Shown here one piece after another: positions 4,666-58,128 of a stretch of DNA of 64,000 nucleotides. The stretch's first letter is position 1, and every line of letters starts with the position of its first letter. The notes beneath the pieces are model-generated. The model saw only the letters and a program-made list of their open reading frames with translations, searched no databases and had not been told where the DNA came from. This stretch comes from a virus. Lineage: Duplodnaviria > Caudoviricetes. The position numbers were made by a program, and so were the translations under genes. The stretch spans positions 1 through 64,000 of IMG/VR virus record IMGVR_UViG_3300021256_000066; one strand, written 5' to 3'.

Positions 4666-4719
4666 GACTGAATCTCAGCATAGTTCACTGATTTATTAAC
4701 ACAAAAATTTGTTTGCATC

Positions 4720-5610: not shown

Positions 5611-5680
5611 TCTCTCTATCGGGTGCAGGGGGTTCGACTCCCCCTGCGCTTGCTAATCACCAACAAAACAAAGAAAGATT

Positions 5681-5836
5681 ATGGCAGTAACGAATCCAAA
5701 CAAGTATGTGACCGTGCGACGGCTCAATCGGTTCCGTCAGAAAATCAAGGCCGAGATGCCTTCGTCCACCGTCGCCAGCGAAGAACTCTGCGCAGCGGCA
5801 GCAGCCGAGATAGCATTCGTGCCGGAGCAAGAATAG
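5681..5836 (+). CDS. 51-aa protein missing from the ORF track (MAVTNPNKYVTVRRLNRFRQK...)
   Basis: AAAGATT-ATG leader. N-terminus is paralogous to 4720..5610 and C-terminus resembles that of 3231..4046. Confidence 0.7.
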   Translation: MAVTNPNKYVTVRRLNRFRQKIKAEMPSSTVASEELCAAAAAEIAFVPEQE

Positions 5837-5858
5837 TCAAATTTTAAAACATAAGAAT

Positions 5859-6188
5859 ATGCCACAGAACAGTATTACACCAGAACAGAAGGGACAGGCC
5901 GTCAACCTCGGCGGCATGATGGCCCACGTAGAGACGGTGATGCAGCGCTTCAACAGAGAGGTGACGCAGCCCGGACTACAAGGAAAGGTGGATGATGTCA
6001 CCTTCGACTCGTCCACTGGCGAGCTCCGCCGCACTAAGAACGGCACCAGTGCCAAGGTGTGCGACGTCGTGACCAGCGGATTCCGCATCACGCAGGACGA
6101 CGAGAACGGTATCGACGTCTTCACGGCGGTAGGCAGCGCCACCATCACCGATGACGATACGAACGGTATAGTCAATTTCAATTTCTAA
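5859..6188 (+). CDS. Hypothetical tail-associated protein
   Basis: 109-aa ORF in operon directly before the DGR target. Confidence 0.65.
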   Translation: MPQNSITPEQKGQAVNLGGMMAHVETVMQRFNREVTQPGLQGKVDDVTFDSSTGELRRTKNGTSAKVCDVVTSGFRITQDDENGIDVFTAVGSATITDDDTNGIVNFNF

Positions 6189-8456: not shown

Positions 8457-9684
8457 ATGAAACTGACATTCAAGAATCTGCTCCGCGACCTCTATGTGGC
8501 ACTTGCCGACGCCCGCCGCCACAAGCGCAGGATGTCGTATGTCAGGAAGTTCCATCTGGCGCTGAAGACGAATATCATGCTGCTGTGCATGGCGCTATGG
8601 CTGCGCTCCTATGCGCCGCTGCCGTCGAAGTGCTTCATCGTGGACCGTCCGAAGAAGCGGGAGATCTACGCCGCGCAGTTTCCCGGACAGGATAGTGCAT
8701 CACCTCTACTACAACTACACGCACGAGCTCTACGAGGCGACGTTCATACGCGACTCGTACTCCTGCATCAAGAATCGCGGCACGCTCGACGGTGTGCTGC
8801 GCCTCTCGGAGCATATCCGCAAGGAGTCGCAGAACTGGACGCGGGAATGCTATGTGCTGAAACTCGACATACGAGGGTATTTTATGCACATCAACAGGCA
8901 GCGTCTGTTGGAGATATGTCTCGATACGCTGTCGAAGATGGCCACGCACAAGATGCCGAAGCACCTGCGGCACGGCAACGTGGTGACGTGGGAACAGGCG
9001 CTGGACATGGACTTCGTGAGGTGGCTCACGGAAGTCATCGTCATGCTCAACCCGCGCGACAACTGCATCATCTGCGGCAGCGAGGCGGACTGGATAGGAC
9101 TCGATCCGGCCAAGTCGATGCGGTGGCTGGAGGAAGGACTCGGACTGCCCATCGGCAACCTGACGAGCCAGCTGTTCTCGAACGTCTATCTCAACGTGCT
9201 CGACCAGTTCATGAAGCGGGTATTGAAATGCCGTCACTACGGCAGGTACGTGGACGACTTCTTCGTCGTGAGCTGCGACCGCGAGTGGCTGCTGTCGCTG
9301 GTGCCACGCATCAGACGGTTCCTGAAGGTGGAACTTGGTCTCGACCTGCACATGGGCAAGGTGCGCATCTGCCGTGCCAGTCAGGGCGTGGAGTTCCTAG
9401 GGGCCTACATCAAGCCATTCCGCATCTACACCTCGAACGCCACGAAGGAGCGGATACTGCAGAACCTGTCGGAGATGGACTTCACCGACCGCGAGGCGGT
9501 AGGCAGGACGGTCAACTCCTACCTGGGCATCATGTCGAAGACCGCCTCCTACAACCTGCGCCGGGAGTTGTTCTTCCGCAAGGAGTTCCTGCGCATAGGC
9601 TCGTTCGACGAGCGGATGACGAAGTTCACGCCGCACGGCCATCGTACCAGGCGGCTGCATAGACATCAACAACACCATTTATAA
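8457..9684 (+). CDS. DGR reverse transcriptase, split by a +1 frameshift at TTTCCC (8679..8684)
   Basis: N-part MKLTFKNLL..PKKREIYAAQF is in the frame of 8457. C-part PDRIVHH, LKLDIRGYF, GLPIGNLTSQLFSNVYL (DGR-type IGxxxSQ) and YVDD is in the frame of ORF 8611..9684. Confidence 0.92.
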
Positions 9685-11197: not shown

Positions 11198-11229
11198 TTT
11201 GGAGTCTAAGTTTTTTGTGGGTAAATTTG
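11198..11229 (+). promoter_or_regulatory. Host-type (sigmaA) promoter TTTG...TAAATTTG
   Basis: Matches the Bacteroidota -33/-7 consensus upstream of the 11.3-15 kb operon. Confidence 0.55.
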
Positions 11230-43909: not shown

Positions 43910-44332
43910 TTACTCCTCTGCAAAGAGCCTGATAGCCCTGCCGCACTGCGGACAGCGCACCAGCCCCACCAGCGTAGTGCCCTGCGGCTGCTGCTCCTGC
44001 GCTGGCTGCTTATCGAAGGGCAACTCTTCCTGCTCTGACTGCTGACCGTCGGTCTGAGCCGATGCCGCCTGCTGCTGCCCAGCCGATGCCGATTCAGCGG
44101 CAGGCTGCTGTGCGGACTGCGACGGCTTCTGGGCGGTCTTGCCCTCGTTCTCATACCAGTCGCCGAAGAACTCGGCGGGCGAACAGCCGATGACCAGAGC
44201 GATCTCGATAAGTTTCTTCACGTTGGGCGAGCCGTTGATGGTGGCGCTGAGCGAACCTTTGGTGATGCCGAGCGCGTTGGCCACATCCTCCAGCCTGAAT
44301 CCGTGCTTTTTGATAACTGCTAATATCTGCAT
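43910..44332 (-). CDS. XRE-family HTH regulator with C-terminal CPxCG zinc ribbon
   Basis: LEDVANALGITKGSLS..N.SP...L.EIA..IG HTH; CPQCG. Confidence 0.8.
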   Translation of the reverse strand: MQILAVIKKHGFRLEDVANALGITKGSLSATINGSPNVKKLIEIALVIGCSPAEFFGDWYENEGKTAQKPSQSAQQPAAESASAGQQQAASAQTDGQQSEQEELPFDKQPAQEQQPQGTTLVGLVRCPQCGRAIRLFAEE

Positions 44333-44371: not shown

Positions 44372-44562
44372 CAAAATTACAACTTTTCTCCAAATATCCA
44401 AACCTTTTTCTCTAAAAAGTTTGGCTGTTTTAAGATTTTTAATACTTTTGGTTTGGAAGTTTGAAAATATACTCTTAACTTTGCCGTGTTAAACATTAAC
44501 ACTTGAATTGTTAAATATCAAATCTGCTTTAACTTAACATATTAACACATGAAATGTTAAAT
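44372..44562. promoter_or_regulatory. Divergent host-type promoters and operator-like repeats
   Basis: Minus TTTG..TAATTTTG (about 44372..44402); plus TTTG..TAACTTTG (44452..44483); ATTAACAC(T/A)TGAA(T/A)TGTTAAAT at 44495 and 44541. Confidence 0.55.
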
Positions 44563-44759
44563 CGGAGGTCTAAACCCTGTTAAAACGTCGTTTTAGTTGC
44601 GTATCTTTAATTAATGTAGTCAGATTGGCAATTTTTGGTATACCAATGATAATTGCTAATTTGCTGATAATCATATAGTCCTGTTTCTGGCGGAAAACCC
44701 GAAGCCTTCCAAACAGACGCGAGACCGCCGCCACACTGCCGCGCCTCGCCGGCACCCCA

Positions 44760-45240
44760 TTGTCTGGAATGGGGTGTAATATGCGGGTGAGGGTGCGCGG
44801 TGTGGTGATCATCTCACTTTGCGGTGTGGTGCGGGTTTCTCTCTGTGTGGGTTTCGGTGTGGTGTGGTGGTGGTGTGATCCTCTCACCTCATCAGAGAGT
44901 GAGAGAGTGAGAGAGAGAAACCCCAAACAGATTGCACCCTCATTTCTTTGTGTGTGTGTTCAGGTGGTGGTGTGTGTTCCGGTGGTGGTGTGGGTTTCTC
45001 TCTGTGTGGGTTTCGGTGTGGTGAGGGTGCAATCTGATTGCAGCCATACCACCACCACCAAACCACCACCACACCACACCACAAAATGAGGTGTGAGAGA
45101 TCACCACACCACCACACCACCAAATGAGAGAGAAAACGAAACCAAATACCACCAAAAGCAACAAACAGAGAGAAACCAAAACCCAATACCACCAGAAACC
45201 CAAACAGAGAGAAACCGCAAAAAATCGGCACACCTTATTA
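44760..45240. other. Strand-skewed non-coding region (GT-rich then CA-rich); origin or genome-end candidate
   Basis: 32-bp direct repeat at 44833 and 44992; inverted ACAGAGAGAAACC at 45165 and 45204; central palindrome at 45028..45042. Confidence 0.5.
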
Positions 45241-45329
45241 TATATATAGGGGCAAAAACGCAAAAGTTTGAATATTTTGTAACTTTTTCGGAAAAAGTTT
45301 GGTTATTTTGAAAAATTTTCGCTCAAAAG

Positions 45330-45361
45330 TTTGGAATATTCAAAACTTATTCTTACCTTTG
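45330..45361 (+). promoter_or_regulatory. Host-type early promoter TTTG...TACCTTTG
   Basis: Consensus -33/-7 boxes heading the small-gene array. Confidence 0.7.
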
Positions 45362-45395
45362 CAGCGTAAAATTAAAACTTTAAGCAAAATATTAA

Positions 45396-45434
45396 AACCG
45401 AAACCCCAATGGCATATAATAGGGGATTAAGACA
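45396..45434 (+). promoter_or_regulatory. Covarying leader hairpin AACCGAAA-CCNC-loop-GNGG-N9-ATG (also 46427, 47997, 48353, 48914, 52452; degenerate 49692)
   Basis: Compensatory CCCC/GGGG, CCAC/GTGG and CCGC/GCGG stems. Confidence 0.75.
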
Positions 45435-45851
45435 ATGACACATTTTAATTTTAATGGTACAGAGGTAAAAGTTAGTGCATCTTTCAAAGGTGAGGTTTCA
45501 AATGTTTGGGGTGATGGTATGCAGCATTTTAAGTTCATCATTACCATTACAGCCAATGACAAAAAAACATCTTTCACTTATTATGATTCATTTGCTAATT
45601 GGCAAAAGAACAAACAGAACTTAGATTCTGACGATCTCAAATCTGCATTGGACTGTTTTTTCTCTGATGCATCATGTTATGAGAGTGCAACAGATTTGGC
45701 GGATTTTCTTTGTGAGTTTGGGTACAATGAGGACACAGAATCTTTGCGCAAAGGTATGAAAGCGTTTGACGGATGCAAACGTCATTATCAAAGTGCGGTT
45801 AGAGTGTTCGGATCTGATTGGTACGACATCGCAAACGCTATTAATGAATAG
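45435..45851 (+). CDS. Hypothetical early protein
   Basis: 138 aa; first gene after the early promoter. Confidence 0.75.
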   Translation: MTHFNFNGTEVKVSASFKGEVSNVWGDGMQHFKFIITITANDKKTSFTYYDSFANWQKNKQNLDSDDLKSALDCFFSDASCYESATDLADFLCEFGYNEDTESLRKGMKAFDGCKRHYQSAVRVFGSDWYDIANAINE

Positions 45852-45920
45852 TTACTAATTAATCCCTATTACAGAGAATCAGATAAAAAGAGTACAGAAC
45901 CATATAAAAAACATTGAGTT

Positions 45921-46148
45921 ATGACTACAAAAGATAAATATTCGTATGAGGTGAGAAAACAGGTCAAAAATGGTGTGGATTTCTCAAAGAATGTATTTGA
46001 AACCCCTATTATATTACGCATTGATTTAGCAGAGATCGCACGAAAATACCATTATAAGAAAACTAATCCTAACCACTCTTTGGGTGTGTGTTTCTATCTG
46101 CTATTGCAAAGAGTATATAACCAGTTAAGAAATGAGGGTGCAATCTGA
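45921..46148 (+). CDS. Hypothetical early protein
   Basis: 75 aa. Confidence 0.65.
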   Translation: MTTKDKYSYEVRKQVKNGVDFSKNVFETPIILRIDLAEIARKYHYKKTNPNHSLGVCFYLLLQRVYNQLRNEGAI

Positions 46149-46204
46149 TTGCACCCCATACAGAGAGAGAAAAAAGAGTTATAAACAATTTAATCCGGTA
46201 AGTT

Positions 46205-46345
46205 ATGAATAAGTTATTTTTAGTGATCCTTTGTGTTGGTGGTGTGGGTATGTCGCAAATCTACTCATATAGCCCTACACAGTTACTTTGTGATTTAGTG
46301 AGAAGTGGCGAGACCATAAGCAATGTAACAATAAAGAGCGCATAA
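46205..46345 (+). CDS. 46-aa peptide missing from the ORF track (MNKLFLVILCVGG...)
   Basis: Preceded by the AAACAATTTAAT..GTAAGTT-ATG leader shared with other early genes. Confidence 0.5.
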   Translation: MNKLFLVILCVGGVGMSQIYSYSPTQLLCDLVRSGETISNVTIKSA

Positions 46346-46465
46346 AATCGGATTAGGGGCAAATATTGAACTTTGTGCGGATCGTAACCGTGTACCCCTA
46401 CAATTATAGAGTAATAGACAATTTAAAACCGAAACCCCAATGGCATATAATAGGGGATTAAGAAC

Positions 46466-46744
46466 ATGAAATATAATACATTTTATTCCCACAAACTGAA
46501 ATGTGAGGTTAGGCAAATAAATGTAAGAACCGCAAAGAAACTCTTTGAGAATGGGAAAGGTATTTTCTTTCAATCCTCAAATATGACATTTGACAATGTA
46601 TGGCACACACCATTCTTTTTTAATGCAGAGTGCGCAAATGGTCAAAGTTTCGAAACTCTTTGTAACTCATACAGATATTATAATTGCGACAATTACAGAG
46701 GGAAATATATCAATTACTTTATGAGGGTTTCGGATTTCTCATAA
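46466..46744 (+). CDS. Hypothetical early protein
   Basis: 92 aa, hairpin leader. Confidence 0.7.
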   Translation: MKYNTFYSHKLKCEVRQINVRTAKKLFENGKGIFFQSSNMTFDNVWHTPFFFNAECANGQSFETLCNSYRYYNCDNYRGKYINYFMRVSDFS

Positions 46745-46799
46745 TACCCCATACCCCTACATTATAGGCAATTTATAGAATCCCTAAAATATTGCAGAT

Positions 46800-47063
46800 A
46801 TGAAAAAAATGGCATACATCAAAGTTAATGGTACGACATTTGGCTACATTTGGCAATGTACCAAAAACAAAGAGTATTTTGTTAATTGGTGTGGGTGTAA
46901 TGGTGGTGAGTTTGCGCAATGGTGCAAACAGATTGCAGAGATACCAAACGCAATAAACTCAATCTTTGGTGTGAGGGTTTCTTTAAAACCTTTGAAATGG
47001 TGTGCAAATTCTTTCGACCAGATTGCAGCAGATCACCCCACAATTATAGAGAATATTATCTAA
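46800..47063 (+). CDS. Hypothetical early protein
   Basis: 87 aa. Confidence 0.7.
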   Translation: MKKMAYIKVNGTTFGYIWQCTKNKEYFVNWCGCNGGEFAQWCKQIAEIPNAINSIFGVRVSLKPLKWCANSFDQIAADHPTIIENII

Positions 47064-47109
47064 TCCCTACATTATAGACATATTATAGAATCACTTAAAT
47101 ATTATAGAT

Positions 47110-47559
47110 ATGGCAAAGATTGATATTTCAAAAGAGAGTTTAGAGAGTTTTAGCCACAATAAAAATGTGTGTGGTATCTCTCAAAGTGAGGTGATCACAA
47201 AGAGAATGATTGCACCCATTGATGAGAAAAACGTTACATCCGATTGGATAGAGCAAATATTTGACGGATATAATTGTACCTATACAGAGGTAAAACGCAC
47301 ACACAAATATTGCGGTTTCGTTGGTGGTGAATTGGTGATGTGTTCTTACACCTTTGGCACAAATACCCTGCAATGGTGGATTGTTATACCCTCTTATGAT
47401 AGTGAAACCGCATACCATTACAATGAGAGATTGCAGAGAGTAAACTCTATCTTATTAGAGAGATTGCAAAAATTTGAGAATGATGAGAGTGATCTGTTTT
47501 CCTACATTGATAACAAAGGTTATTTGATTTATCAGGATTTCTATTTCAAAGGTGAGTAA
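47110..47559 (+). CDS. Hypothetical early protein
   Basis: 149 aa. Confidence 0.7.
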   Translation: MAKIDISKESLESFSHNKNVCGISQSEVITKRMIAPIDEKNVTSDWIEQIFDGYNCTYTEVKRTHKYCGFVGGELVMCSYTFGTNTLQWWIVIPSYDSETAYHYNERLQRVNSILLERLQKFENDESDLFSYIDNKGYLIYQDFYFKGE

Positions 47560-47604
47560 TCCCACATTATAGGCATATTATAGAATCACTTAAAAATTAC
47601 AGAT

Positions 47605-47955
47605 ATGGCAAAGTTTACGATAGATTTAGACTATTTCGACATTAAGAGTAAATCTTTGGTTGGTGATATGTGTTTCTTCTTTGAAACCTCATTGGAAAAC
47701 TCTATTTGGTGTGAATCTGCAAAAGAGATGCAACAGAGTTTTGAGGATGGTTTCAATGGTGGTGATATTGGCAATGAGATCGAAAACCCAGAAATCCACA
47801 ATGTATGTGAGGTGGTAGATGAGTTTGGTATGATTGGGTATCCTAAAATCTCTAATATAGTTCTGCTGCAAAATCAGAGAGATTTAGAGAATCATATCCG
47901 GAAAATGGTTTCACAGAAATACCCACAATCGGAAATCAAAGTTTGGTATAAGTGA
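47605..47955 (+). CDS. Hypothetical acidic early protein
   Basis: 116 aa. Confidence 0.7.
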   Translation: MAKFTIDLDYFDIKSKSLVGDMCFFFETSLENSIWCESAKEMQQSFEDGFNGGDIGNEIENPEIHNVCEVVDEFGMIGYPKISNIVLLQNQRDLENHIRKMVSQKYPQSEIKVWYK

Positions 47956-48033
47956 TACCCATTATAGAGAGTTTATAGAATCACAGATAAATTTAGAACC
48001 GAAACCCCAATGTGATAACAGGGGATTACGACA

Positions 48034-48303
48034 ATGAGTAAAACAGAGATTTTAAAGAATGCTTACAACCGCATAAAGAATGGCGAAACATTGGTATGTA
48101 ATGGGTGTGTAATGTGGAAATATTATGATCCGTTTGCAGGGCATAATGTAATAGAATGGCGCAATTTCGGACAAAGTGCAAACCGCATGAATTTCGACAA
48201 TTTCAAATGGATTGTAGAGGTGATCGCAAAGAGTATAGATTACATCTTTGAAACCCCACAAGAGTATGCACAAAGAAAGAACATACCATTGTATTTGGTT
48301 TAA
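48034..48303 (+). CDS. Hypothetical early protein
   Basis: 89 aa, hairpin leader. Confidence 0.7.
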   Translation: MSKTEILKNAYNRIKNGETLVCNGCVMWKYYDPFAGHNVIEWRNFGQSANRMNFDNFKWIVEVIAKSIDYIFETPQEYAQRKNIPLYLV

Positions 48304-48389
48304 TATCTCTTTATAGGTATATAGAGAGTTTATAGAATCAGAGAATTATTAGAACCGAAACCACAATGTGATAATAGTGGATTACAAAG

Positions 48390-48851
48390 ATGGCAAAGAA
48401 TTTAGAGTTTATCAATGTATTAGAGGATTCTTACCCATTGTATGAGTATTGCAAAGAGAATGGTTTTACCGATTGTGAGGATTACGATGAGTGGTTTGAC
48501 AATGGTGGTGAGTTGAGTTTCTTTGAGGGTGATCCCGACATTATCAAAGTGAATGGTGAGATAGGTTATTTCTGCAAATGTGGTGATGTGGTTTTCTACT
48601 ACTTTGATGATTGTTTCACACATGATGCAGAACAGATACTCAAAGGTTTCTTTGCAGCATTCAATGTGGGTACTACCATTGGCGGTGAGAGTTGGATGAG
48701 TGGTGAGTTACCAAAGGGTGTGAGTGATGCAGCAGAGATACAGAATTGGGATGTGTGGGAAAAGATTAGATGCGGTATTGCATACAGAGGTGGTGCCGGA
48801 TATACCTACACTATACAGAGTTGGGGTAACTATTTGAGGTATGCAGCATAA
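48390..48851 (+). CDS. Hypothetical acidic early protein
   Basis: 153 aa, hairpin leader. Confidence 0.7.
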   Translation: MAKNLEFINVLEDSYPLYEYCKENGFTDCEDYDEWFDNGGELSFFEGDPDIIKVNGEIGYFCKCGDVVFYYFDDCFTHDAEQILKGFFAAFNVGTTIGGESWMSGELPKGVSDAAEIQNWDVWEKIRCGIAYRGGAGYTYTIQSWGNYLRYAA

Positions 48852-48950
48852 CCCCATATTATAGACATTATAGGAAATCAGAGATATTACAGATAAACAA
48901 TTTAATTCATAAGAACCGAAACCACAATGTGATAATAGTGGATTACAGAG

Positions 48951-49637
48951 ATGAAGAACTATAAAGTAAAGTTATTCCATTTTGATGAGTTATCAGAGGA
49001 TGCAAAAGCAAAGGTGTGCGATAAGGAGAGAGAGAGTGATTATAACTTTGGCTATCTCTCACAAGAAACAGATGCAGAGGAAAGAATCGCCACATTGGAT
49101 AAGTTCTGTGAGGTATTTGGCATTAAGTATAATATAGATTACGATCATAATCACAGATTCATCGAATGGCATTTCCTGGATGTGGATATGAATGGGTATG
49201 ATTGGTGTGATGAGGATATAGAGGGTAAGTATCTGTTGAGATTTCTCAATCGCTACTACTTTGATATTCTCTCAAAGAAATACTACTCATGCAATCAGCA
49301 TTACGATGAGAATGGCAAATTCCATTACGCACACAGATATTCACGTTTTCAGTATGAGAGAGGTAATTGTCCTTTTACCGGAATGTGTTACGATTGCGAC
49401 ATATTGGATAAGATTTTTGAGTGGTATGACAAACCTAATTGGAAAATCTCTTTGCATGATCTCTTTGAGGATGTTTTCTCTCACTATATGAGTTTGTGGG
49501 AAAGTGAGGATGATTACCGCATGAGTGATGAACACATTTCCGACATGATTTCTGCTAATTGGGGTGATAAACTCTACTTTGAGGATGGTAGAGAGTTTAA
49601 CGGCAATGAGGATGATTTAGAACCGATTGCAGCATAA
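48951..49637 (+). CDS. Acidic early protein of the F.ELS..AK...SDE.I...I.AN..F.EDG type
   Basis: Terminal motifs recalled from mobile-element proteins often labelled antitoxin-like; function unverified. Confidence 0.7.
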   Translation: MKNYKVKLFHFDELSEDAKAKVCDKERESDYNFGYLSQETDAEERIATLDKFCEVFGIKYNIDYDHNHRFIEWHFLDVDMNGYDWCDEDIEGKYLLRFLNRYYFDILSKKYYSCNQHYDENGKFHYAHRYSRFQYERGNCPFTGMCYDCDILDKIFEWYDKPNWKISLHDLFEDVFSHYMSLWESEDDYRMSDEHISDMISANWGDKLYFEDGREFNGNEDDLEPIAA

Positions 49638-49732
49638 TTATAGGGTAAGTGAGAAATTAAGCGATTACAAACGATTATAGATAGGAATTAGAACCGATCC
49701 CCGAATGTGTATATAAGAGTGGGTTTATAAAG

Positions 49733-50005
49733 ATGAAGAAAAACGATATTTACAGAGAGTTTCAAAGGATTGCAGCAGAGGTAGTGGGTGACAACCGCAA
49801 AGCTCAAAAGTATTATGTGATGCAGATGTGCGAACAGTTGGGTAAGGTGAACCACAAGAACCCATTTGTGATGTGGTGCAGCAGGAAAAGATGTATGGTG
49901 TATCAGAGTGGTATGGTAGAGAAACCTACACCAAAAAACTCACAGAATGGTGCATACTACCTTTTCCGCAATAACTCACAGAGTGCAGAGAGAGTATCTT
50001 TTTAA
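49733..50005 (+). CDS. Hypothetical early protein
   Basis: 90 aa. Confidence 0.65.
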   Translation: MKKNDIYREFQRIAAEVVGDNRKAQKYYVMQMCEQLGKVNHKNPFVMWCSRKRCMVYQSGMVEKPTPKNSQNGAYYLFRNNSQSAERVSF

Positions 50006-50063
50006 GTGAAGAGTGAATAGTGAAGAATTACATATTATAGAACCGGTAAAATATCACAGAATT

Positions 50064-50609
50064 ATGAACAATGATGTATATATGGTGGAATACAAAGGTA
50101 AGAAATTCCCCACAAGAGAGATTGAGATTGAACACTACATTAAGGGTATGGGTGTAGTAACTATTGCCGATTGGGAATTGTGGAAAACAATAGAGGATGA
50201 TTGCCGAAATGGGGATAGCAGAGCAACCGCAATCGACAATGGCATATTCTACTACTGCAATTCGGGAATGATAGCAAGCAATCCGTCTGATACAGAACTT
50301 ATCTACTCTGTATTGAGGGGTATGCACAATGAGGATGATTTTACGGATGAGTGGTGGTACAATCTAATGCGCAATGCAACCTTTGAGATTGCACAGATGC
50401 ACGAAAGAGGTGAGATCAACTGCAATGTAGAGGGTTATGAGTGTGGTGGTTATTATTCGGTGTATGGTTATAGTGATGGTGTGAATCACTCTCTTTATGA
50501 GGGTAAGAGTGCAAAGATGGCTGCAATGGCTGCAATGAGTGCAATCACCACCATCCGGCTGATGAACTATCCGTATTGGAGTATCACAGAGGGTGTAAGT
50601 ACATTATAG
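50064..50609 (+). CDS. Hypothetical early protein
   Basis: ATT-ATG at 50064. Confidence 0.7.
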   Translation: MNNDVYMVEYKGKKFPTREIEIEHYIKGMGVVTIADWELWKTIEDDCRNGDSRATAIDNGIFYYCNSGMIASNPSDTELIYSVLRGMHNEDDFTDEWWYNLMRNATFEIAQMHERGEINCNVEGYECGGYYSVYGYSDGVNHSLYEGKSAKMAAMAAMSAITTIRLMNYPYWSITEGVSTL

Positions 50610-50660
50610 AGTTTATAGGATATTAGAGATATTACAAACAATTTAATTCAGAATAAGATT

Positions 50661-51245
50661 ATGGCACAGAAATATTCGTTTAAGACAATGTGGATTGATG
50701 ATAAGGAAATGTTTTCAGTTTCATTGTTATGCAATGGTGAGGTGGTAGAAACTCACACATTCAAAGGACACCAGGATATGATGATGTGGATTTCGGACAC
50801 AATGGCAGGGTTGCAACTCTGTGGCGATGATTGGGAATTTGTATGCAAAGAGAGAACCTATATTGAGAAACCCAAAGACAATAACCTTGATGCGCTATTC
50901 AATAGTGTGGTGGAAAAGAGACAATCAGATTACGATAAGCGCAGAGCAGAGGGTAAGGCAAAGGAAAGAGAGTGGATGCAGAGAACACAAGAGTTTTTCG
51001 CAAAGATCGAGTTCTTAAATCAGTATGGTTTCGGTTTCCACATTTCAGAGGAAAAGGAAACTGGTTGCACCTCTTATCCCGATGAACATAGAATATATAT
51101 CCGTCCTTCAAAAACTCATGGGCGTATCAATGTAATGCCGAATGGTGACATACATTGCTCTTGCTATGTAGGCACTTACGACAAGACATTCAAGAGTGTA
51201 GAGGAATTTGTGAAAGCAATGGCAGAGTGTATCAGAATGAAGTAA
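50661..51245 (+). CDS. Hypothetical early protein
   Basis: 194 aa. Confidence 0.7.
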   Translation: MAQKYSFKTMWIDDKEMFSVSLLCNGEVVETHTFKGHQDMMMWISDTMAGLQLCGDDWEFVCKERTYIEKPKDNNLDALFNSVVEKRQSDYDKRRAEGKAKEREWMQRTQEFFAKIEFLNQYGFGFHISEEKETGCTSYPDEHRIYIRPSKTHGRINVMPNGDIHCSCYVGTYDKTFKSVEEFVKAMAECIRMK

Positions 51246-51275
51246 CATTATATAACCGATTAAAATTCACAGACT

Positions 51276-51476
51276 ATGGCACAGAACAATATGCAATCAG
51301 ACGAGTTGGTAATCACTATCCGCATTACATTTGAGCATGACGGAAGAATGGGTGATCGGGATGAACGTAATGAGTATGTGGCTGCAAAGGTGATTGGCGA
51401 TGCGCTATCGCACACCCACACCATTGAGAACGGCATACAGATACACGACATCGAGAATTGTGGTGAGAATTGGTAA
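51276..51476 (+). CDS. Hypothetical early protein
   Basis: 66 aa. Confidence 0.6.
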   Translation: MAQNNMQSDELVITIRITFEHDGRMGDRDERNEYVAAKVIGDALSHTHTIENGIQIHDIENCGENW

Positions 51477-51537
51477 CATTATAGACATTATAGGAAATCA
51501 GAGTAATTAACGAATTAAACAATAGGAGAATTAAGTT

Positions 51538-52410
51538 ATGGCAAAAGAGATTAGTGTTTGTAAGGTAGATATGGGTAGAAACATTGAAAAACCCACAAAG
51601 GTGAATAGGTTTAAGAATTTCTGTACCTACTGCAAAGTACCCACAATAGGTTGGGGCAAGCCATTCTATGCAATCATGCAGGGTAAGTTGAGGGCAGTAA
51701 AGTTCATTCGTATTGAATACTACACCTACAATACCTTTAACAACACAGATAGTTTGGAGTGTAAGTTTGCAGTAATCTATCTTGATGTGGCAGGAATTGG
51801 TGAGGTGAAAGTTTCAGCACACTATTGGTACGACATTCCATTCTCTATCTTTGAGAGTGTAGAGGATTTCAGAAACAATGTGGAGTACGATGTTAGTCAC
51901 GATGCAGGTGAGGTACACCTTTTAGATATGCTGCATGATGTTGCAAATGGTAGGCAGATGTTTAAGCATATTAGTGCAGGAGAGAATGATACCCTATTGC
52001 AGTTTGTGTGGGATGCAGCAAAGTGTGAGGTGAGAACCGCTTACACAGAGATACCCTCATGTATCAGTTACACAGAGAGAGAGGGTTTCTATACCAAAGA
52101 GAAATGGGTATTAGGCAATGGCAGATTTGCCACAAGAGAGGATTGTGAGAATGCCAACAATGTAGAGGTGGTGGAGTTTGAGGACGATCCTACTCACATT
52201 GAAAAGGATTTGCGCAAGCAGATTCGTACTGAAGTAATGCGTACCTTTGCTGATTGGCTAACTGCATCCGACATTGAGAATATGGCAGAGAGTATCATTG
52301 ATGATTGTGTTGAGGATGTTAAGGTATGCAGCGACTACCCACACTACAATGATGATGATGTGCGTATTGCCATTCAGAGGGTAATTCTTAACAGAGTGGT
52401 TGGTGAGTAA
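51538..52410 (+). CDS. Hypothetical early protein
   Basis: 290 aa. Confidence 0.75.
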   Translation: MAKEISVCKVDMGRNIEKPTKVNRFKNFCTYCKVPTIGWGKPFYAIMQGKLRAVKFIRIEYYTYNTFNNTDSLECKFAVIYLDVAGIGEVKVSAHYWYDIPFSIFESVEDFRNNVEYDVSHDAGEVHLLDMLHDVANGRQMFKHISAGENDTLLQFVWDAAKCEVRTAYTEIPSCISYTEREGFYTKEKWVLGNGRFATREDCENANNVEVVEFEDDPTHIEKDLRKQIRTEVMRTFADWLTASDIENMAESIIDDCVEDVKVCSDYPHYNDDDVRIAIQRVILNRVVGE

Positions 52411-52488
52411 TCTTATTATAGAGTTTATAGGATATTAGAGATACAATTCAGAACCGAAACCGCAATGCGATAATGGCGGAGTAAGACA

Positions 52489-53190
52489 ATGAAAGAGAAT
52501 ATTGCAGTATTGTTGGCAGAGAGGAACGATTTGGTGGAGAAGTTCAACAAGCGTAAGGACTATGCAGTCCAGGGTACGCAGGACAGAATGGATGAGATTT
52601 GCCGGCAGATAGACAGTCTGATGACAGAGGACAACTCCATTGAGGTGACTTTTTTAGAGTATGGTGTGGTGAGGTACACACAATCACAGATTGATGAGTT
52701 GAAAGCAAAGGGAGTGGATTTATTTCGCTATACGAAGAAAGCAGACGGGATGTACGATCATACGGAGAAGATACTCAAGCAGGGCAGGGTGATACTCTCT
52801 GATAATGACGAGAAGAATCGGTTTTTTCTCTTCTGCATTGGCTACCACAAGTATTTGGATGAGTACACTCCATTCTACCATATCCATGATCACTATCCCT
52901 GCTATCCCCACAAGATACAAAACTCTCTTGACATCTATGAGGGTACATACAAGAATCAGTTTGTGGATGATTTTGTCTATACGACTGCAAACGGAGAGTT
53001 GGCAATCAAGTATGGCAATAAGAGAGTGGATAGTTGGAATACCGCATACAACTGCGTATTGACTACCTCTATTCATGCCAACCTATTCAGCATTAGTCCT
53101 GCATTGATAAGCAAGAACCGCAAAGAGGTGCAGCGTTATGAGGGCAACCGATGGTATCACACTAACCGCATGATTGGGAGTTATCAGTAA
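52489..53190 (+). CDS. Hypothetical early protein
   Basis: 233 aa, hairpin leader. Confidence 0.75.
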   Translation: MKENIAVLLAERNDLVEKFNKRKDYAVQGTQDRMDEICRQIDSLMTEDNSIEVTFLEYGVVRYTQSQIDELKAKGVDLFRYTKKADGMYDHTEKILKQGRVILSDNDEKNRFFLFCIGYHKYLDEYTPFYHIHDHYPCYPHKIQNSLDIYEGTYKNQFVDDFVYTTANGELAIKYGNKRVDSWNTAYNCVLTTSIHANLFSISPALISKNRKEVQRYEGNRWYHTNRMIGSYQ

Positions 53191-53227
53191 ACATATTATA
53201 GACATTATAGGAAATCAGAGTAATAAC

Positions 53228-53300
53228 AACTTTTCGATTAAGCGAGTAAAATCAAATGTATTTGAATTGTCGAGCGTGAGAAAAGTCAAACGAAGTTTAA
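53228..53300 (+). repeat. GCGAG...CGAGCGTGAG element inserted in a conserved leader
   Basis: Interrupts the AACAA|TTTAATTCAG leader seen intact at 55805. Confidence 0.65.
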
Positions 53301-53319
53301 TTTAATTCAGAATAAGATT

Positions 53320-54051
53320 ATGGTACAGATTGAAAAGATAGACGGAATGTATAAGTGGGATTTGAACCGCATGGTGGATGATTGCTCAAAGAGGATTGGC
53401 GATAATGGCTACTTTGGCAGTTGGCACAAGATTCAGATAGACGGAAAGCAGACGATGGTGTATTGCGATGATAGGGATGCACTCTGCTTTACTGCAATCA
53501 ATGAGTGGTTTGACGAGGTGGTAGTGTTGGAATGGAGTGGTGACTATCGTTGGAATAGCGACAAACCCGCAATCGTAAGGAATGGCGATAAGTTCAATAT
53601 AGTGGAATGTCCCAAAGGTGGAATGTATAATAGCAGCAAGAAAATGCGCTTGCTCTGTGATGTGTGGTTTGAGTTAGTGGGTGATCCCAAATGGAAGTTT
53701 GACGATGAGCTGCATACCTACTGCATCATGGCAAAGATAGATGGCAATGTGGTGAAGATTACCAAAGAGGGTAGCATTGTAGAGGGAAACCCTCAAGAAC
53801 TGATGGCAGAGGTTAGCCATTATAGCATGGATGAGATATTAGAGAAGTGGATTCGTGCAGGCAAACGCTGCATCTATCGTGAGGGATGGGCATACAGAGG
53901 TGCAAAGTCAAAGGTTATCAGCAATGAGGATGCAGAGAGAATGTTACCTCAATACCATTTCGGCAAAGGATTCTATGAGTTGCGTTGGACGATGGATGAT
54001 GGCAAGGTAGCATTGGAGTTCAATGAACTATCAGTATTGGATATGGAGTAA
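53320..54051 (+). CDS. Hypothetical early protein
   Basis: 243 aa. Confidence 0.75.
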   Translation: MVQIEKIDGMYKWDLNRMVDDCSKRIGDNGYFGSWHKIQIDGKQTMVYCDDRDALCFTAINEWFDEVVVLEWSGDYRWNSDKPAIVRNGDKFNIVECPKGGMYNSSKKMRLLCDVWFELVGDPKWKFDDELHTYCIMAKIDGNVVKITKEGSIVEGNPQELMAEVSHYSMDEILEKWIRAGKRCIYREGWAYRGAKSKVISNEDAERMLPQYHFGKGFYELRWTMDDGKVALEFNELSVLDME

Positions 54052-54112
54052 CCCTTTATAGCGAGTGTAAGAAATCAGAGTAGAAACAATTAAAGTATAG
54101 GAGAAACAAGTT

Positions 54113-54880
54113 ATGATTATCAATATTGAGTTTACAACCGCAAGAGGTTACAAGTATGAGACGATGCGCACAGAGTTTGACCGCAACTATCGGGATGAGG
54201 AACAGGCATTGATCTTCGTGGAGAGCGAGGAGGATGATTTCAATGGCTACTTTGAGGTGAACATCCGCAAGGACAAGCAGGGCAAGGCTATCAGCGAGGG
54301 TTATGTGTGCGAGTATGCAAGCACAGAGGATAGCGACCCACAGACTATCTATGAGGATGCGAAGATTGAGGTCAAGCTGCATGACTTTGACGATGTGTTG
54401 GAGTTGGCTAATGCGGAACTGTGGCAGGATGATTTGCAGATTGTGTTGGAGTACGATGGTGAGTGTTATTGGGCTATCGGCACAGAGATTAAGGCTACAA
54501 AGGAAATTAAGTGGTATGTATCGGCAGACTTTGAGAACGAGGTGCGAGGGCATATCTATGAGTGTTGGGCACACGCAAGGGCTATGGCAAAGGAATTGGC
54601 AAAGACTGACGATAAACCGAAGATGTGGTGTGTGACTTATGTGGGTTTGTCGGATTCGGAGTACAAGGCTAATGGCTATTCAGAGGTTGCTCTGTATGCC
54701 ACAAAGGATGCAGCGAAAGCGAAACTGAAAGCATGGCGAGACAACGAGATTGCGGAACTGAAAGAGCAGGAACGTGACTATGAGATATTGGAAGATGAGG
54801 ACGATGAGTGCCGTATCAGTTGGTGCGGACATGGTGAGCAAATCCGCATTGAGGTACACGAAGTGGAGTTGAATAAGTAA
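54113..54880 (+). CDS. Highly acidic hypothetical protein
   Basis: 255 aa, D/E-rich. Confidence 0.75.
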   Translation: MIINIEFTTARGYKYETMRTEFDRNYRDEEQALIFVESEEDDFNGYFEVNIRKDKQGKAISEGYVCEYASTEDSDPQTIYEDAKIEVKLHDFDDVLELANAELWQDDLQIVLEYDGECYWAIGTEIKATKEIKWYVSADFENEVRGHIYECWAHARAMAKELAKTDDKPKMWCVTYVGLSDSEYKANGYSEVALYATKDAAKAKLKAWRDNEIAELKEQERDYEILEDEDDECRISWCGHGEQIRIEVHEVELNK

Positions 54881-54946
54881 ACCCCTACATATTATATACA
54901 TTATAGAATATTACAGAAATCAGCAACAATTTAATTCAGAAAGATT

Positions 54947-55495
54947 ATGAAGAAAGAGATTATTTTGGCAGTAGCCAATCAGATACAGAACATGATGTAT
55001 AACGACATTACTTGTGAGTATGGAGTGGAGAGTTTTGAGAGTTGGTGCAACGATGGTGAGGTGTTTGAGAACGAGGGTATGGATGCAGCCGATGTGAAAG
55101 AGTGTATGCAGTTGGTTAAGGTGGTTGCTCCATTGGTGGATAACTTGGTGATGAACAACCTCAATATCGACAATCCCGAAGTGGCGGTTGCGAAGAAAGA
55201 GTATGTGGTGCGGTCTATCTCATGGGATGATAAGTTGAATGCTATTATAGAGGCTGCGAGAAATGAGGGATTTGCCGAAGAGGTGGAGGATATAGACTTG
55301 CTCTCATATATCAAGGTGAACGACAAAGGAGAGAAAGAAACCTTTGAGGAACGTTTCGACTATATCGACACTACCACCATTCCGATATCTGTTCACTTTA
55401 TCTGTGGCACCGGCTATGAGAACTATTCCGTACCTATCGGATGGCTGACAGACGAGAGTATTGATAAACTCTATGAGTGCGTGATAAACAAGTAA
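54947..55495 (+). CDS. Acidic hypothetical protein
   Basis: 182 aa. Confidence 0.7.
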   Translation: MKKEIILAVANQIQNMMYNDITCEYGVESFESWCNDGEVFENEGMDAADVKECMQLVKVVAPLVDNLVMNNLNIDNPEVAVAKKEYVVRSISWDDKLNAIIEAARNEGFAEEVEDIDLLSYIKVNDKGEKETFEERFDYIDTTTIPISVHFICGTGYENYSVPIGWLTDESIDKLYECVINK

Positions 55496-55563
55496 TCACC
55501 TTTTATATATTATAGTGAGATTATAGGATTTAGTGAGAAATTAAAAGTATAGGAGATAAGATT

Positions 55564-55788
55564 ATGGGATGGATTAAAACACCAACGAAATCGAGCGAGG
55601 AAATCTTCAGCGAGATTGTCAAAGACAGACCGACTTGGAACGGACGGATTGGCGATAGCACAACACCATACGAATATTGGAGTGACTGGCTGCGTGATAA
55701 CTATGACCTCACAATAAAGCAAGCTGACGAGGTTTGCAGAGGACTTAAAGAGTATTACCATATAGAGCATTTCTATTATGGAGAGTGA
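55564..55788 (+). CDS. Hypothetical protein
   Basis: 74 aa. Confidence 0.65.
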   Translation: MGWIKTPTKSSEEIFSEIVKDRPTWNGRIGDSTTPYEYWSDWLRDNYDLTIKQADEVCRGLKEYYHIEHFYYGE

Positions 55789-55826
55789 GAAAAATCAGAG
55801 AAATAACAATTTAATTCAGTAAGATT

Positions 55827-56396
55827 ATGGATAAGACGAATAATACGATGTATTCAAAGGGTATGGTTGATAACATGATTGTGAGCGGTACTGCGGAGAA
55901 CCGCAAAGTGTTGAACGGCACAAACTATCAGTTTGACGAGATGGGCGAGTGCGAGATAGAGATGCGTTTCTTTGACGGATTGGCGGTGGCTACTGACGAT
56001 AGCGGAGTGGTGGTGCGCTATCCTAAGTTGAGCGAGGTGCAGGGGTCTGTAAAGATGCAGCAGGCTATCTACCGACATACGGGATTGAACTGCGCGAGTC
56101 AGTTTGATGTGGCTCTGACCTTTGGCAAGGCTGACCGCTATAAGATGGTGGCTGACTACGACATTTGGCGGTTGCAGGGCGACAACGAGGACTTGGATAT
56201 TACCGCTATACATTCTGCTGACGGAAAGTTTCTGTTTGATGTGTTGGAGGATGACTATGAGGAAATGATGAATGCTGACATCGTGGAGGATGGCTATCTG
56301 TGTGGGCAGCCTACTGACGAGCAGATCAAAGAGTGGCAGGCTAAGTATGGCATTCTGTGGACGGAGAACTTTACTAAGGAGTTGGTGGGTGCTTAA
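55827..56396 (+). CDS. Hypothetical protein
   Basis: 189 aa. Confidence 0.7.
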   Translation: MDKTNNTMYSKGMVDNMIVSGTAENRKVLNGTNYQFDEMGECEIEMRFFDGLAVATDDSGVVVRYPKLSEVQGSVKMQQAIYRHTGLNCASQFDVALTFGKADRYKMVADYDIWRLQGDNEDLDITAIHSADGKFLFDVLEDDYEEMMNADIVEDGYLCGQPTDEQIKEWQAKYGILWTENFTKELVGA

Positions 56397-56426
56397 CATT
56401 ATAAACTATATAGGAGATTAAGGACT

Positions 56427-56648
56427 ATGGTACATTTGGAGAGGAAGAATCCCGAAGTGAGGGAACATCTGACTGACGAGGGAGTGCAGATCGTGATGGA
56501 CGCTCTGTTGCACGAAATGGAGCGATACAACAAGGCAATGGACTTGGTGACGTACGGGAACGCACGTCATGCTATCGACTATGCGAAGAAAAAGGTTTAT
56601 CGGGTTTATCAAGTGATGAACAACCTTATGCCCGAAGATAAGGGGTGA
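56427..56648 (+). CDS. Hypothetical protein
   Basis: 73 aa. Confidence 0.65.
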   Translation: MVHLERKNPEVREHLTDEGVQIVMDALLHEMERYNKAMDLVTYGNARHAIDYAKKKVYRVYQVMNNLMPEDKG

Positions 56649-56705
56649 CACCACATTATAGACAATCGGAAATATCACAGAAGTTTAATTTAATTCAGTA
56701 AGATT

Positions 56706-57332
56706 ATGAGTACAAGAGCAACGATTAAGATCAAGCAGAGTTTCTATAACACAGACGAGGATTACGACAAGGGCATACTGACACCTTACGAAATCGAGTT
56801 GTATCACCATTCAGACGGATATCCCAAAGGCATTGGGGCGGACATCGTGGAGTTCCTACGCAACAGAAACGATGGCTACGACACCGACAAACCGATATGG
56901 GAAGCTGAACGCATAGCAACGGACATGGTGAGGGGTGAGGTGCTGACGAGCAAGTCGTTGAGCGAGCCAAAGGATGTGCATCGGGATATGGGCTACGATG
57001 TGGCTATCTGTCAGCATGGCGACTGCGTGTATGGCTATCTGATAGACTGCGATGAGCGCAAGGTGACGTGCTACGATATAGAGCCAGGGCAAGAGGATTG
57101 GACGGATGACTGCATTGTGGAGATACCCGACACTTGGGCGCAGTTTGGCGGTCTGCATCTCCCCGAAGAGACGGACGGACTGAAGAAGTTTAGCGAGGCT
57201 ACCGCAGTACAGAAAGCGGAGTGGCTGCTTGAGGTGGCAGAGGAGTGCAAGGTGAAACATCCCGATCTGGAGTGGGACGACATCATCAGCCGTGCCAAAG
57301 AGCGACTGGCAGAGGCAAAGGGAGAGAAATAG
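56706..57332 (+). CDS. Phage protein with MSTR...YxHxDGYPxGxG motif
   Basis: MSTRATI and LYHHSDGYPKGIG; function unknown. Confidence 0.75.
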   Translation: MSTRATIKIKQSFYNTDEDYDKGILTPYEIELYHHSDGYPKGIGADIVEFLRNRNDGYDTDKPIWEAERIATDMVRGEVLTSKSLSEPKDVHRDMGYDVAICQHGDCVYGYLIDCDERKVTCYDIEPGQEDWTDDCIVEIPDTWAQFGGLHLPEETDGLKKFSEATAVQKAEWLLEVAEECKVKHPDLEWDDIISRAKERLAEAKGEK

Positions 57333-57366
57333 GCATATTATAGGACATCGGAAATATCACAGCATT

Positions 57367-57528
57367 ATGAGACAAGTATCAGAATCAGACGAGATCAGAA
57401 TGATTGTGCCGTTCGCAGCGTGGCTTGACCGCCACCCGGCAATCGCCAACATCATCATCGGGATTATGGCACTGGCACTCGCCTATGCCGTGTTCTCCTA
57501 CGAGTTCACCATCCCCGCCTATCAGTAG
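57367..57528 (+). CDS. Small membrane protein
   Basis: 53 aa, one TM helix, CATT-ATG start. Confidence 0.55.
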   Translation: MRQVSESDEIRMIVPFAAWLDRHPAIANIIIGIMALALAYAVFSYEFTIPAYQ

Positions 57529-57603
57529 CCCCCACACCTTTATATATATTATACACGTTAGAGAACATCACAGAAATCACAAACAATTTAATTCGGAAAG
57601 ATT

Positions 57604-58128
57604 ATGAACACAAAGAACAATATCACGCTCAACACGCTTTGCACCGACAGCAAGTCCGTTAGCCAGGCAAAGGAGAATATCACGAAGAACTGGTGTGACA
57701 TCAACTTCGACGAGCGCACAGACAACTTCATGTTTGAAGAGCGCGACCTGCGCCACTACGATGACGGCGCAATAGAGTTTGATTACTGCTACGTTATACG
57801 CGGCTATGAATATTGGGACTGCGGACACGACGGCTGCGAGTTCTGCTACGAGCTGGCACTGGTGCCTGCATGGGACAGTCTGAGCCGTGACAATCAGGAG
57901 GCCGTGCGCCGAGCCATCGGCGACTCCGACGTTACCGAGGGCTACGCCTACGACATCGCGGAATATGGCATCGAAATCGTCATCGGCACGATCCGCACGC
58001 TCAACGAGTGGCCAGACATCGACATCGTGGCACTGGCTGCTACAGCCATCAACCATCAGGAGCAGACGCTGAAAAGCGATATCCCGCATGACTACTACCG
58101 TCTGTACGACTGGCTGAAGGCCGCGTAA
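57604..58128 (+). CDS. Acidic hypothetical protein
   Basis: 174 aa. Confidence 0.7.
   Translation: MNTKNNITLNTLCTDSKSVSQAKENITKNWCDINFDERTDNFMFEERDLRHYDDGAIEFDYCYVIRGYEYWDCGHDGCEFCYELALVPAWDSLSRDNQEAVRRAIGDSDVTEGYAYDIAEYGIEIVIGTIRTLNEWPDIDIVALAATAINHQEQTLKSDIPHDYYRLYDWLKAA

Follow-up and report, generated by a model that had tools for sequence, protein, structure and literature searches.

What has stripped one part of a phage genome of nearly all its GAAG and GGAG words, and how far does the loss extend? The part in question, positions 44760–48950, lies within the first 64 kb of virus record IMGVR_UViG_3300021256_000066 in IMG/VR (the window, meaning this whole 64-kb stretch; coordinates below refer to it). 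The complete record has 129,506 bp and a CheckV completeness of 100%; we denote it G000, the window phage, and use G001, G002, G003, L129, L158 and L160 for related contigs. An earlier note, made by eye from the sequence alone, had described the near-total avoidance of the two words, and on recount every one of its counts was exact: GGAG and CTCC are absent from 44760–48950, while GAAG and CTTC occur once each, at 46302 and 47676. The stretch also contains a single CAAG and a single CGAG, no CTTG or CTCG, and no AGCT, GGCC or CTAG, against 69 AGAG and 44 TGAG. The scarcity of CAAG, CGAG, GGCC and AGCT is thus borne out; that of CTAG holds for the stretch but is not regional, as there are only 3 sites in the 129.5-kb genome.

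GAAG, GGAG, CAAG, CGAG and their reverse complements can be written together as SRAG/CTYS. To evaluate their depletion in 44760–48950 we used three nulls, each of which keeps the protein sequences of the nine open reading frames (ORFs). When synonymous codons were permuted within the nine ORFs, 50.3 ± 5.6 sites were expected (minimum 34 in 1000 permutations) and 4 observed, so that the depletion is significant under the codon-preserving shuffle which the earlier note had proposed as a check. The expectation is 91.5 with codons drawn from genes at 52–57 kb and 122.9 with bulk-genome codon usage. Both orientations are purged, because the reverse-complement forms taken separately were found once versus 16.8 expected. 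The non-coding portion (1,329 nt) has no SRAG/CTYS site versus 24.5 ± 4.8 expected. In an unbiased scan of the 136 tetranucleotide classes the four most depleted were CTCC/GGAG, CTTC/GAAG, CAAG/CTTG and CGAG/CTCG, and among all 4-letter IUPAC motifs SRAG/CTYS ranked best (4 observed vs 57 expected, log10 P = −19). The whole genome has 5,123 such sites (39.6 per kb). All of the eight longest stretches free of SRAG fall within 44745–52478, and the longest gap elsewhere is 240 bp. Since the depletion affects both strands, coding as well as non-coding DNA, and survives control for amino acids and codons, it is the result of selection on double-stranded DNA words. The suggestion that the targets are six-base Type IIG or bacteriophage exclusion (BREX) sites ending in RAG is not supported in this form, as any one hexamer is expected only once or twice in 4.2 kb and such sites alone cannot account for the pattern. 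The loss of all eight SRAG/CTYS tetranucleotides from 4.2 kb requires either recognition at the 4-bp level or very many enzymes sharing a core.

The purge is also broader than the first 4 kb. Those 4 kb are indeed cleared, but about 20 word classes are involved, and they form two nested tiers that reach 57.65 kb. The last SRAG/CTYS site before the zone is at 44745, site density is normal just upstream, and the zone starts at 44,746. Change-point fits and per-kb counts delimit the following segments:

44746–48946, unstranded: tier 1a, SRAG/CTYS near-absent (1.0 per kb), about 20 other tetranucleotide classes also scarce
48946–52446, unstranded: tier 1b, SRAG/CTYS partly back (8.9 per kb)
44746–57650, unstranded: tier 2, the whole low-GC island, with GGCC, GGNCC, CGCG, CTNAG, GASTC, ACNGT, AGCT, CCAG/CTGG and CGGC near-absent

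The reappearance of the missing words, placed by the earlier note at about 48950, does begin there (first site at 48953, change point at 48946), but the density is only 8.9/kb until 52,446, and GGCC returns only from 57,900. Beyond 52,446 SRAG density is ~33/kb, and the bulk level is reached by the gene at 54113. The second set of words (GGCC, CGCG, CTNAG, GASTC, ACNGT, AGCT and TCGA) stays at 2.7/kb until ~57,650 and then occurs at 20–22/kb. A block-wise synonymous shuffle over the whole island gave the following counts:

CTNAG, whole island: observed 4, expected 29.2
GASTC, whole island: observed 1, expected 11.7
AGCT, whole island: observed 5, expected 22.7
CGCG, whole island: observed 2, expected 15.8
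GGCC, whole island: observed 0, expected 8.4
ACNGT, whole island: observed 6, expected 26.2

In the same shuffle GCGC, CCGG, GTAC, CATG, TGCA, GCNGC and TCNGA match expectation. The tiers separate clearly at 52.4–57.65 kb, where GGAG, CAAG, AGTC and CAGT are at 0.9–1.07 of their bulk density and GGCC, CGCG, CGGC and CCAG at ≤0.16. SRAG/CTYS, AGTC, CAGT and similar words are scarce over the first 4–8 kb only, whereas the shortage of GGCC, CGCG, CTNAG, GASTC, ACNGT and CCAG lasts until the early unit ends. Throughout 44746–57650 there is also strong avoidance of the 3-bp word GTC/GAC.

The same island stands out by its G+C content (GC). The genome has a GC of ~55% except for this one region (44.75–57.65 kb), in which GC drops to 35% and then gradually climbs back, with a G>C skew of +0.25 to +0.32; the rise towards 58 kb mentioned in the earlier note is therefore real. 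For 44760–48950 GC is 36.9% versus 52.6% for the window, and GC at third codon positions (GC3) is 0.38, 0.48 and 0.61 across the successive tiers and 0.70 in the bulk. Nevertheless, the purge is word-specific and not a drift towards AT, because GAG is kept while GTC is lost, and GCGC, CCGG, GTAC, CATG and TGCA are at expectation. GAG makes up 74–80% of Glu codons in the island, and TTG and GTG stay common; by contrast, GTC accounts for 1–2% of Val codons across the island versus 29% in bulk, GCC for 4–12% of Ala codons versus 41%, and TCG codons also vanish, in contrast to GAG, TTG and GTG, for which the preference persists. Much of the low GC of the island is plausibly a by-product of the purge. 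Avoidance of SRAG bars G or C before every GAG and AAG codon, so that in acidic proteins the neighbouring third positions are pushed to A/T; together with the removal of G/C-rich words this would drag GC3 from 0.70 to 0.38. Two other sources of such a pattern were rejected. Avoidance of a protospacer-adjacent motif does not agree with the abundance or enrichment of WRAG words (AGAG, TGAG, AAAG). As for a mutation bias of the cytosine-deaminase type, the retained and lost C contexts obey no simple −1/+1 rule, and GAG, GTG and TTG are preferred.

Outside the island, avoidance takes a different form. Genome-wide, depletion is 3-fold or more for about 30 of the 64 possible 6-bp palindromes, six of them (CGTACG, CTCGAG, GCGCGC, GTCGAC, TACGTA and TGTACA) being absent versus 9–56 expected, and CTAG was found 3 times versus 71 expected. 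The SRAG family and most other words purged from the island are at 0.8–1.16 of expectation in bulk. This fits a layered protection, in which hexamer sites have been removed everywhere and shorter words only where most needed, as the latter cannot be removed from 129 kb of coding DNA.

A natural control for these observations is provided by relatives. The border motif described below, a repeat block and the promoter recur in G001 (111,678 bp, 100% complete) and in G003, a fragment of 53.8 kb; both also have an early region that is colinear with that of the window phage but mosaic. SRAG density is 6.7/kb over 8.6 kb in G001 and 5.7/kb over 5.75 kb in G003, followed in both by 34–35/kb; by change points the corresponding zone of the window phage spans 6.2 kb. 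Second-tier zones, likewise by change points, extend over 12.9 kb in the window phage, 13.0 kb in G001 and 10.3 kb in G003. Non-homologous genes in different relatives follow the same word rules. Six metagenome fragments are equally purged, one of them with a copy of the 228-aa early protein that is only 55% identical. Five other relatives carry the same protein family at a GC of 0.36–0.43 and are unpurged, with 23–41 SRAG sites per kb versus 1.2–5.3. Within the orthologous gene for the 228-aa protein itself (55–68% identity, GC 0.36–0.43), there are 0–4 SRAG sites in purged and 14–29 in unpurged lineages, and 2–4 versus 21–27 GAC/GTC; between the two groups about 20 tetranucleotide classes are depleted 4- to 16-fold. 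This contrast among orthologues argues that the word rule is tied to lineage and genome position and not to the proteins, and that it has been kept through substantial divergence. In one unpurged relative, L129, a 1.2-kb low-complexity coding repeat rich in Ala, Lys and Glu (positions 4700–5900 of that contig) lies just upstream of the early region. The CTNAG-rich stretch of L129 (up to 52 per kb) was considered as a decoy array and rejected, as it is this low-complexity coding repeat.

What lies at the sharp left border? The elements on its two sides are as follows:

43910–44332, minus strand: gene for a helix-turn-helix regulator of the Cro/CI type (Pfam HTH_3, E = 5e−07), divergent from the island
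44402–44483, divergent host-type promoter matches to the strict consensus: minus strand for the helix-turn-helix gene, plus strand at 44420 and 44452
44716–44738, plus strand: GC-rich 23-nt border motif, GACGCGAGACCGCCGCCACACTG, identical in G003, with flanks that otherwise differ
44780–45235, unstranded: GT-rich/CA-rich imperfect inverted-repeat block of ~450 bp, non-coding, between the border and the first promoter
45262–45360, plus strand: three tandem 31-nt repeats, AAAAGTTTG, ending in a strict Bacteroidota-type promoter match

Four virus contigs contain the 18-nt core of the border motif within the same wider context, as do contigs assigned to metagenome-assembled genomes (MAGs) of rumen Prevotella. 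Copies of the core are:

G001:C1, 111643–111660: border-motif core
G002:C1, 1537–1554, minus strand: border-motif core
G003:C1, 36989–37006: border-motif core
L158 and L160: further copies of the core

The SRAG purge is missing from some of the contigs with the border motif, and two of these motif-bearing contigs were assigned to rumen Prevotella MAGs. The motif might serve as a signal for packaging or for the terminus, as a protein site, or as part of the transcript from the 44452 promoter. The contig of G001 both starts and ends inside it. Over the whole 129.5-kb genome cumulative G−C is lowest at 44,758, only a few bases from where the purge begins, and 117 of the 140 genes of at least 100 aa read rightwards. 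Read as a linear map from the border, the genome would have early genes, then modification and replication genes, and then structural genes. Relatives have different repeat arrays at the position of the 44780–45235 block. The promoter match that ends the tandem repeats, TTTG-N20-TACCTTTG at 45330, is ~0.58 kb inside the border; in G001 tandem repeats and promoter are arranged likewise. With the strict Bacteroidota consensus TTTG-N18-21-TANNTTTG only seven matches were found in the genome, four of them within 44,402–45,330. The other matches include one at 11198 of the window, before an operon at ~11.3 kb, and one at 110323 of the genome. Searches against Rfam gave nothing above threshold in 43.8–49.5 kb. 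The Bacteroidota-type promoters, together with the contigs of relatives binned with rumen Prevotella MAGs, hint at the host.

Downstream of the promoter the island is a run of small co-oriented ORFs, of which the following bear on the question:

45435–45851, plus strand: first early gene, 138 aa, isoelectric point (pI) 4.9, conserved in G001 and G003
45921–48851, plus strand: eight further small early ORFs, 46–153 aa, with no family match
48951–49637, plus strand: acidic 228-aa protein, phrog_10310, whose purged and unpurged orthologues serve as the natural control
54113–54880, plus strand: very acidic 255-aa protein, SRAG density first reaches the bulk level in this gene, here as in G001 (93% identical)

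The acidity that the earlier note ascribed to the early proteins is confirmed: the median pI of island proteins is 4.9 versus 6.7 for the rest, and 57% versus 19% are below pI 5. For the first early protein we obtained a confident predicted fold that resembles only uncharacterised viral proteins (best PDB Z score 4.7). It has no Pfam or PHROG match, nor any to Ocr or another solved fold, and judging from the model the fold is apparently phage-specific. The model of the 228-aa protein is middling (pLDDT 67) and matches only uncharacterised phage proteins; no relative of this protein was found in bacterial genomes. An Atlas feature search with the 255-aa protein gave only matches below 0.8. Pfam and PHROGs were blank for ~20 island and 10 G001 ORFs, except for the uninformative phrog_10310, weak peptidase matches and one ddrB-ParB. 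The small early ORFs are preceded by leader hairpins and TATAGAATCA-type intergenic repeats. A repeated leader element is located upstream of early genes at 45391–45435, 46422–46466, 47992–48036, 48348–48392 and 48909–48953, and its hairpin stem covaries (CCCC/GGGG vs CCAC/GTGG). A second repeat family (CATTATAG..TATAGAATCA) is located after stop codons. A scan of IMG/VR with the leader-hairpin pattern returned only the already known relative, among chance matches.

What has to be explained, then, is a word-specific purge on both strands, with a border and tiers, that is conserved in some lineages only. We consider it modestly probable that the island is an early-exposed leading segment, cleared of nuclease targets that would be met before the phage has deployed its counter-measures. 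On this explanation the 12.9-kb low-GC island (44,746 to ~57,650) would be an immediate-early gene block read by the host polymerase and, most likely, the end of a linear genome that enters the cell first. Selection on double-stranded DNA would have removed those short words that nucleases can read before counter-measures act, and this regional purge would overlie the loss of CTAG and 6-bp palindromes seen genome-wide. Host nucleases would presumably read the words, and the acidic early proteins may be the counter-measures. The two tiers might reflect different threats that are neutralised at different times, as DNA enters and early proteins build up in a staged entry of the T7 or T5 type. Entry rightwards from the border fits the sharp left edge of the island and its graded or stepped right edge. 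Precedents exist: restriction-modification (RM) systems, clustered regularly interspaced short palindromic repeats (CRISPR) and related defences act on T5-like phages such as BF23 only via sites in the first-step-transfer (FST) DNA (PMC10644984), and in Murciavirus Type I motifs matter only in the part of the genome that is injected first (PMC12455610).

Several observations count against a leading segment of this kind. The contig of G000 continues unbroken across the border, and its own ends are in a repeated gene. Although G001 does break at the motif, its ends overlap there by 32 nt with one mismatch, and the break may have arisen from an assembly bubble instead of marking a terminus. A replication origin would also fit the skew minimum and repeat block at the border, and the promoter match at 44452 is upstream of the purge border. 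Among the early proteins examined there is no recognisable anti-restriction or anti-defence family or fold, and no terminase was identified: searches with Terminase_6N and TerL_ATPase gave no match, nor did PHROGs reveal one in ten large ORFs. GATC and CCGG are ~2.5-fold depleted in bulk (0.43 and 0.40 observed/expected) and near expectation in the island, a pattern which the simple leading-segment model does not predict. Finally, we know of no enzyme with a degenerate 4-bp SRAG site.

Nucleases might also have shaped the island from the side of the phage. If an early nuclease of its own cuts host DNA at very short words such as SRAG, co-resident phage DNA must lack these words, and the remaining genome would enter, or be protected, later. 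We regard such self-immunity as unlikely, even though the same logic of staged entry accounts for the border and the tiers, a degenerate 4-bp target is better suited to the destruction of a bulk chromosome than to classical RM, and the purge is lineage-specific in a mosaic gene content; the idea has also been proposed for T5 A1 and the site-free FST DNA (10.1101/866236). However, no nuclease family or fold was recognised among the island ORFs, either here or in G001, and homologues of T5 A1, A2 and dmp were not found. Moreover, the words of the second tier are palindromes of the classical Type II-like kind and point to host enzymes, and the genome-wide purge of palindromes shows host restriction to be a major pressure. 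To a similar degree improbable, in our view, is that DNA modification enzymes encoded by the phage itself target the purged words. The window phage does encode a C5 methyltransferase (Pfam, E = 1e−37), and many of the tier-2 words (GGCC, AGCT/RGCY, CGCG, GGNCC, CTNAG) are typical C5-methylase targets that are frequent in bulk, as expected if they are protected there; a zone free of modification would allow reading by the host polymerase, or deprive modification-dependent (Type IV) nucleases of targets until these nucleases are inhibited. Several purged words (GASTC, ACNGT, TCGA) are nevertheless adenine-methylase-type sites, SRAG has no obvious link to C5 methylation, and two tiers are not predicted. 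Evasion of Type IV nucleases would still need staged entry, which makes this explanation partly a version of the leading-segment one.

Explanations that dispense with selection on DNA words fare worse. The border might be a replication origin or a switch of transcription polarity, and the island an exchanged mosaic cassette with a composition derived from a foreign origin or a mutation bias. The skew minimum at 44,758 coincides with the 450-bp inverted-repeat block, gene content is mosaic among relatives, and the GC gradient could resemble amelioration, yet the depletion survives shuffles that hold composition, codon usage and proteins, and the G/C-ending codons GAG, TTG and GTG are preferred while GTC, GCC and TCG vanish. 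In addition, non-homologous genes of relatives obey the same word rules, and homologous genes of equal GC in other lineages do not. This explanation is largely refuted, and we consider it very improbable. Still less credible is avoidance at the RNA level, with early messengers shunning words cut by an endoribonuclease. The RegB nuclease of T4 cuts at GGAG; GGAG and GAAG are among the purged words, and all island genes are on one strand. But depletion is not strand-specific: the reverse complements, absent from the mRNA, are as strongly depleted (1 observed vs 16.8 expected). In addition, none of the words occurs in the repeat DNA upstream of the promoter, which looks untranscribed, and the second tier is made of palindromic sites.

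How does the putative leading segment compare with known ones? As in T5 and BF23, it comprises ~8–10% of a ~120–130-kb genome in a phage with a long tape-measure protein, although its terminal position is putative here; the GenBank record of T5 annotates the FST DNA as the first to enter. Further shared features are many small genes without known function, a repeat-rich non-coding block, and restriction-type sites that are absent from the segment and present in the rest of the genome. The differences are equally clear. Searches (tblastn, E ≤ 0.01) with T5 FST proteins against G000 and the island of G001 detected no homologue of A1, A2 or dmp. Island genes all run in one direction, whereas in T5 they form two divergent units, and the only large repeat block is at the outer, sharp border (44780–45235) and not at the inner boundary like the T5 iss; the inner boundary of the island, near 57.65 kb, is a change of gene strand. 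At equal lengths, 19 tetranucleotide classes are depleted at p<1e−3 in the island of the window phage, 19 in that of G001, and 4 in the T5 FST, where ratios are near 0.6; a bulk stretch of the window phage genome also has 4. The two nested tiers likewise set the window phage apart from T5.

With T7-like phages the island shares a map that would run rightwards from the border through early, replication and structural genes, as well as a small acidic first gene. In T7, short repeats are followed by host promoters ~0.5 kb inside the genome end, and here, too, short repeats and then one or more host-type promoters are found ~0.5 kb inside the putative end. However, the genome is much larger and encodes a tape-measure protein, which means that the phage is not a podovirus, and the first protein matches neither Ocr nor any solved fold. 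In Murciavirus, absence of motifs in the first-injected DNA decides sensitivity (PMC12455610), but what has been published deals with one Type I or 6-bp motif at a time, not with the tiered loss of about 20 tetranucleotides. Palindrome avoidance throughout the genome, as seen in other phages, is strong in the bulk genome, yet the avoidance in the island is regional, polar and tiered, and the words concerned, non-palindromic ones and those of 4–5 bp, are normal in the other 90% of the genome.

The window phage is a tailed phage, with a 1,718-aa tape-measure-like protein and a head-maturation protease, and no relative was found among GenBank phages by megablast of 20 kb or by tblastn with the putative capsid protein. 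The ends of the G000 contig (1–459 and 129222–129506) lie inside repeated modules of a tail-fibre-like gene (285 bp, 96.8% identity), and the assembly behind the record is probably circular or terminally redundant, with its break at this repeat. A 401-aa protein at 8457–9662 has a weak PHROG match to the reverse-transcriptase family (E = 3.5e−06, over 65 residues only).

The principle that leading regions avoid restriction sites is known, and the examples published so far, from cultured coliphage-like systems, each involve a single motif of 6 bp or of Type I. What is new is the degree of the purge, its two-tier structure, a degenerate word of 4 bp and the setting: here 13 kb have been rewritten in an uncultured, probably rumen Bacteroidota phage, with GC3 almost halved and whole tetranucleotides gone. 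It is possible, although we would put it forward only tentatively, that the purge records an as yet undescribed nuclease activity, of host or phage, that reads the degenerate 4-bp word SRAG/CTYS and perhaps GAC/GTC, along with the order and timing of DNA entry. The analysis offers predictions as to the genome end, the DNA that enters first, the words read by nucleases, and the small acidic proteins that merit screening for anti-defence functions. In metagenomic phage contigs, leading ends could be recognised by a sharp border from which the words recover in tiers. If the explanation holds, each tier boundary would mark the moment at which a given threat is neutralised, and leading ends, entry kinetics and defence specificities of uncultured phage–host pairs could be read from metagenomic contigs.

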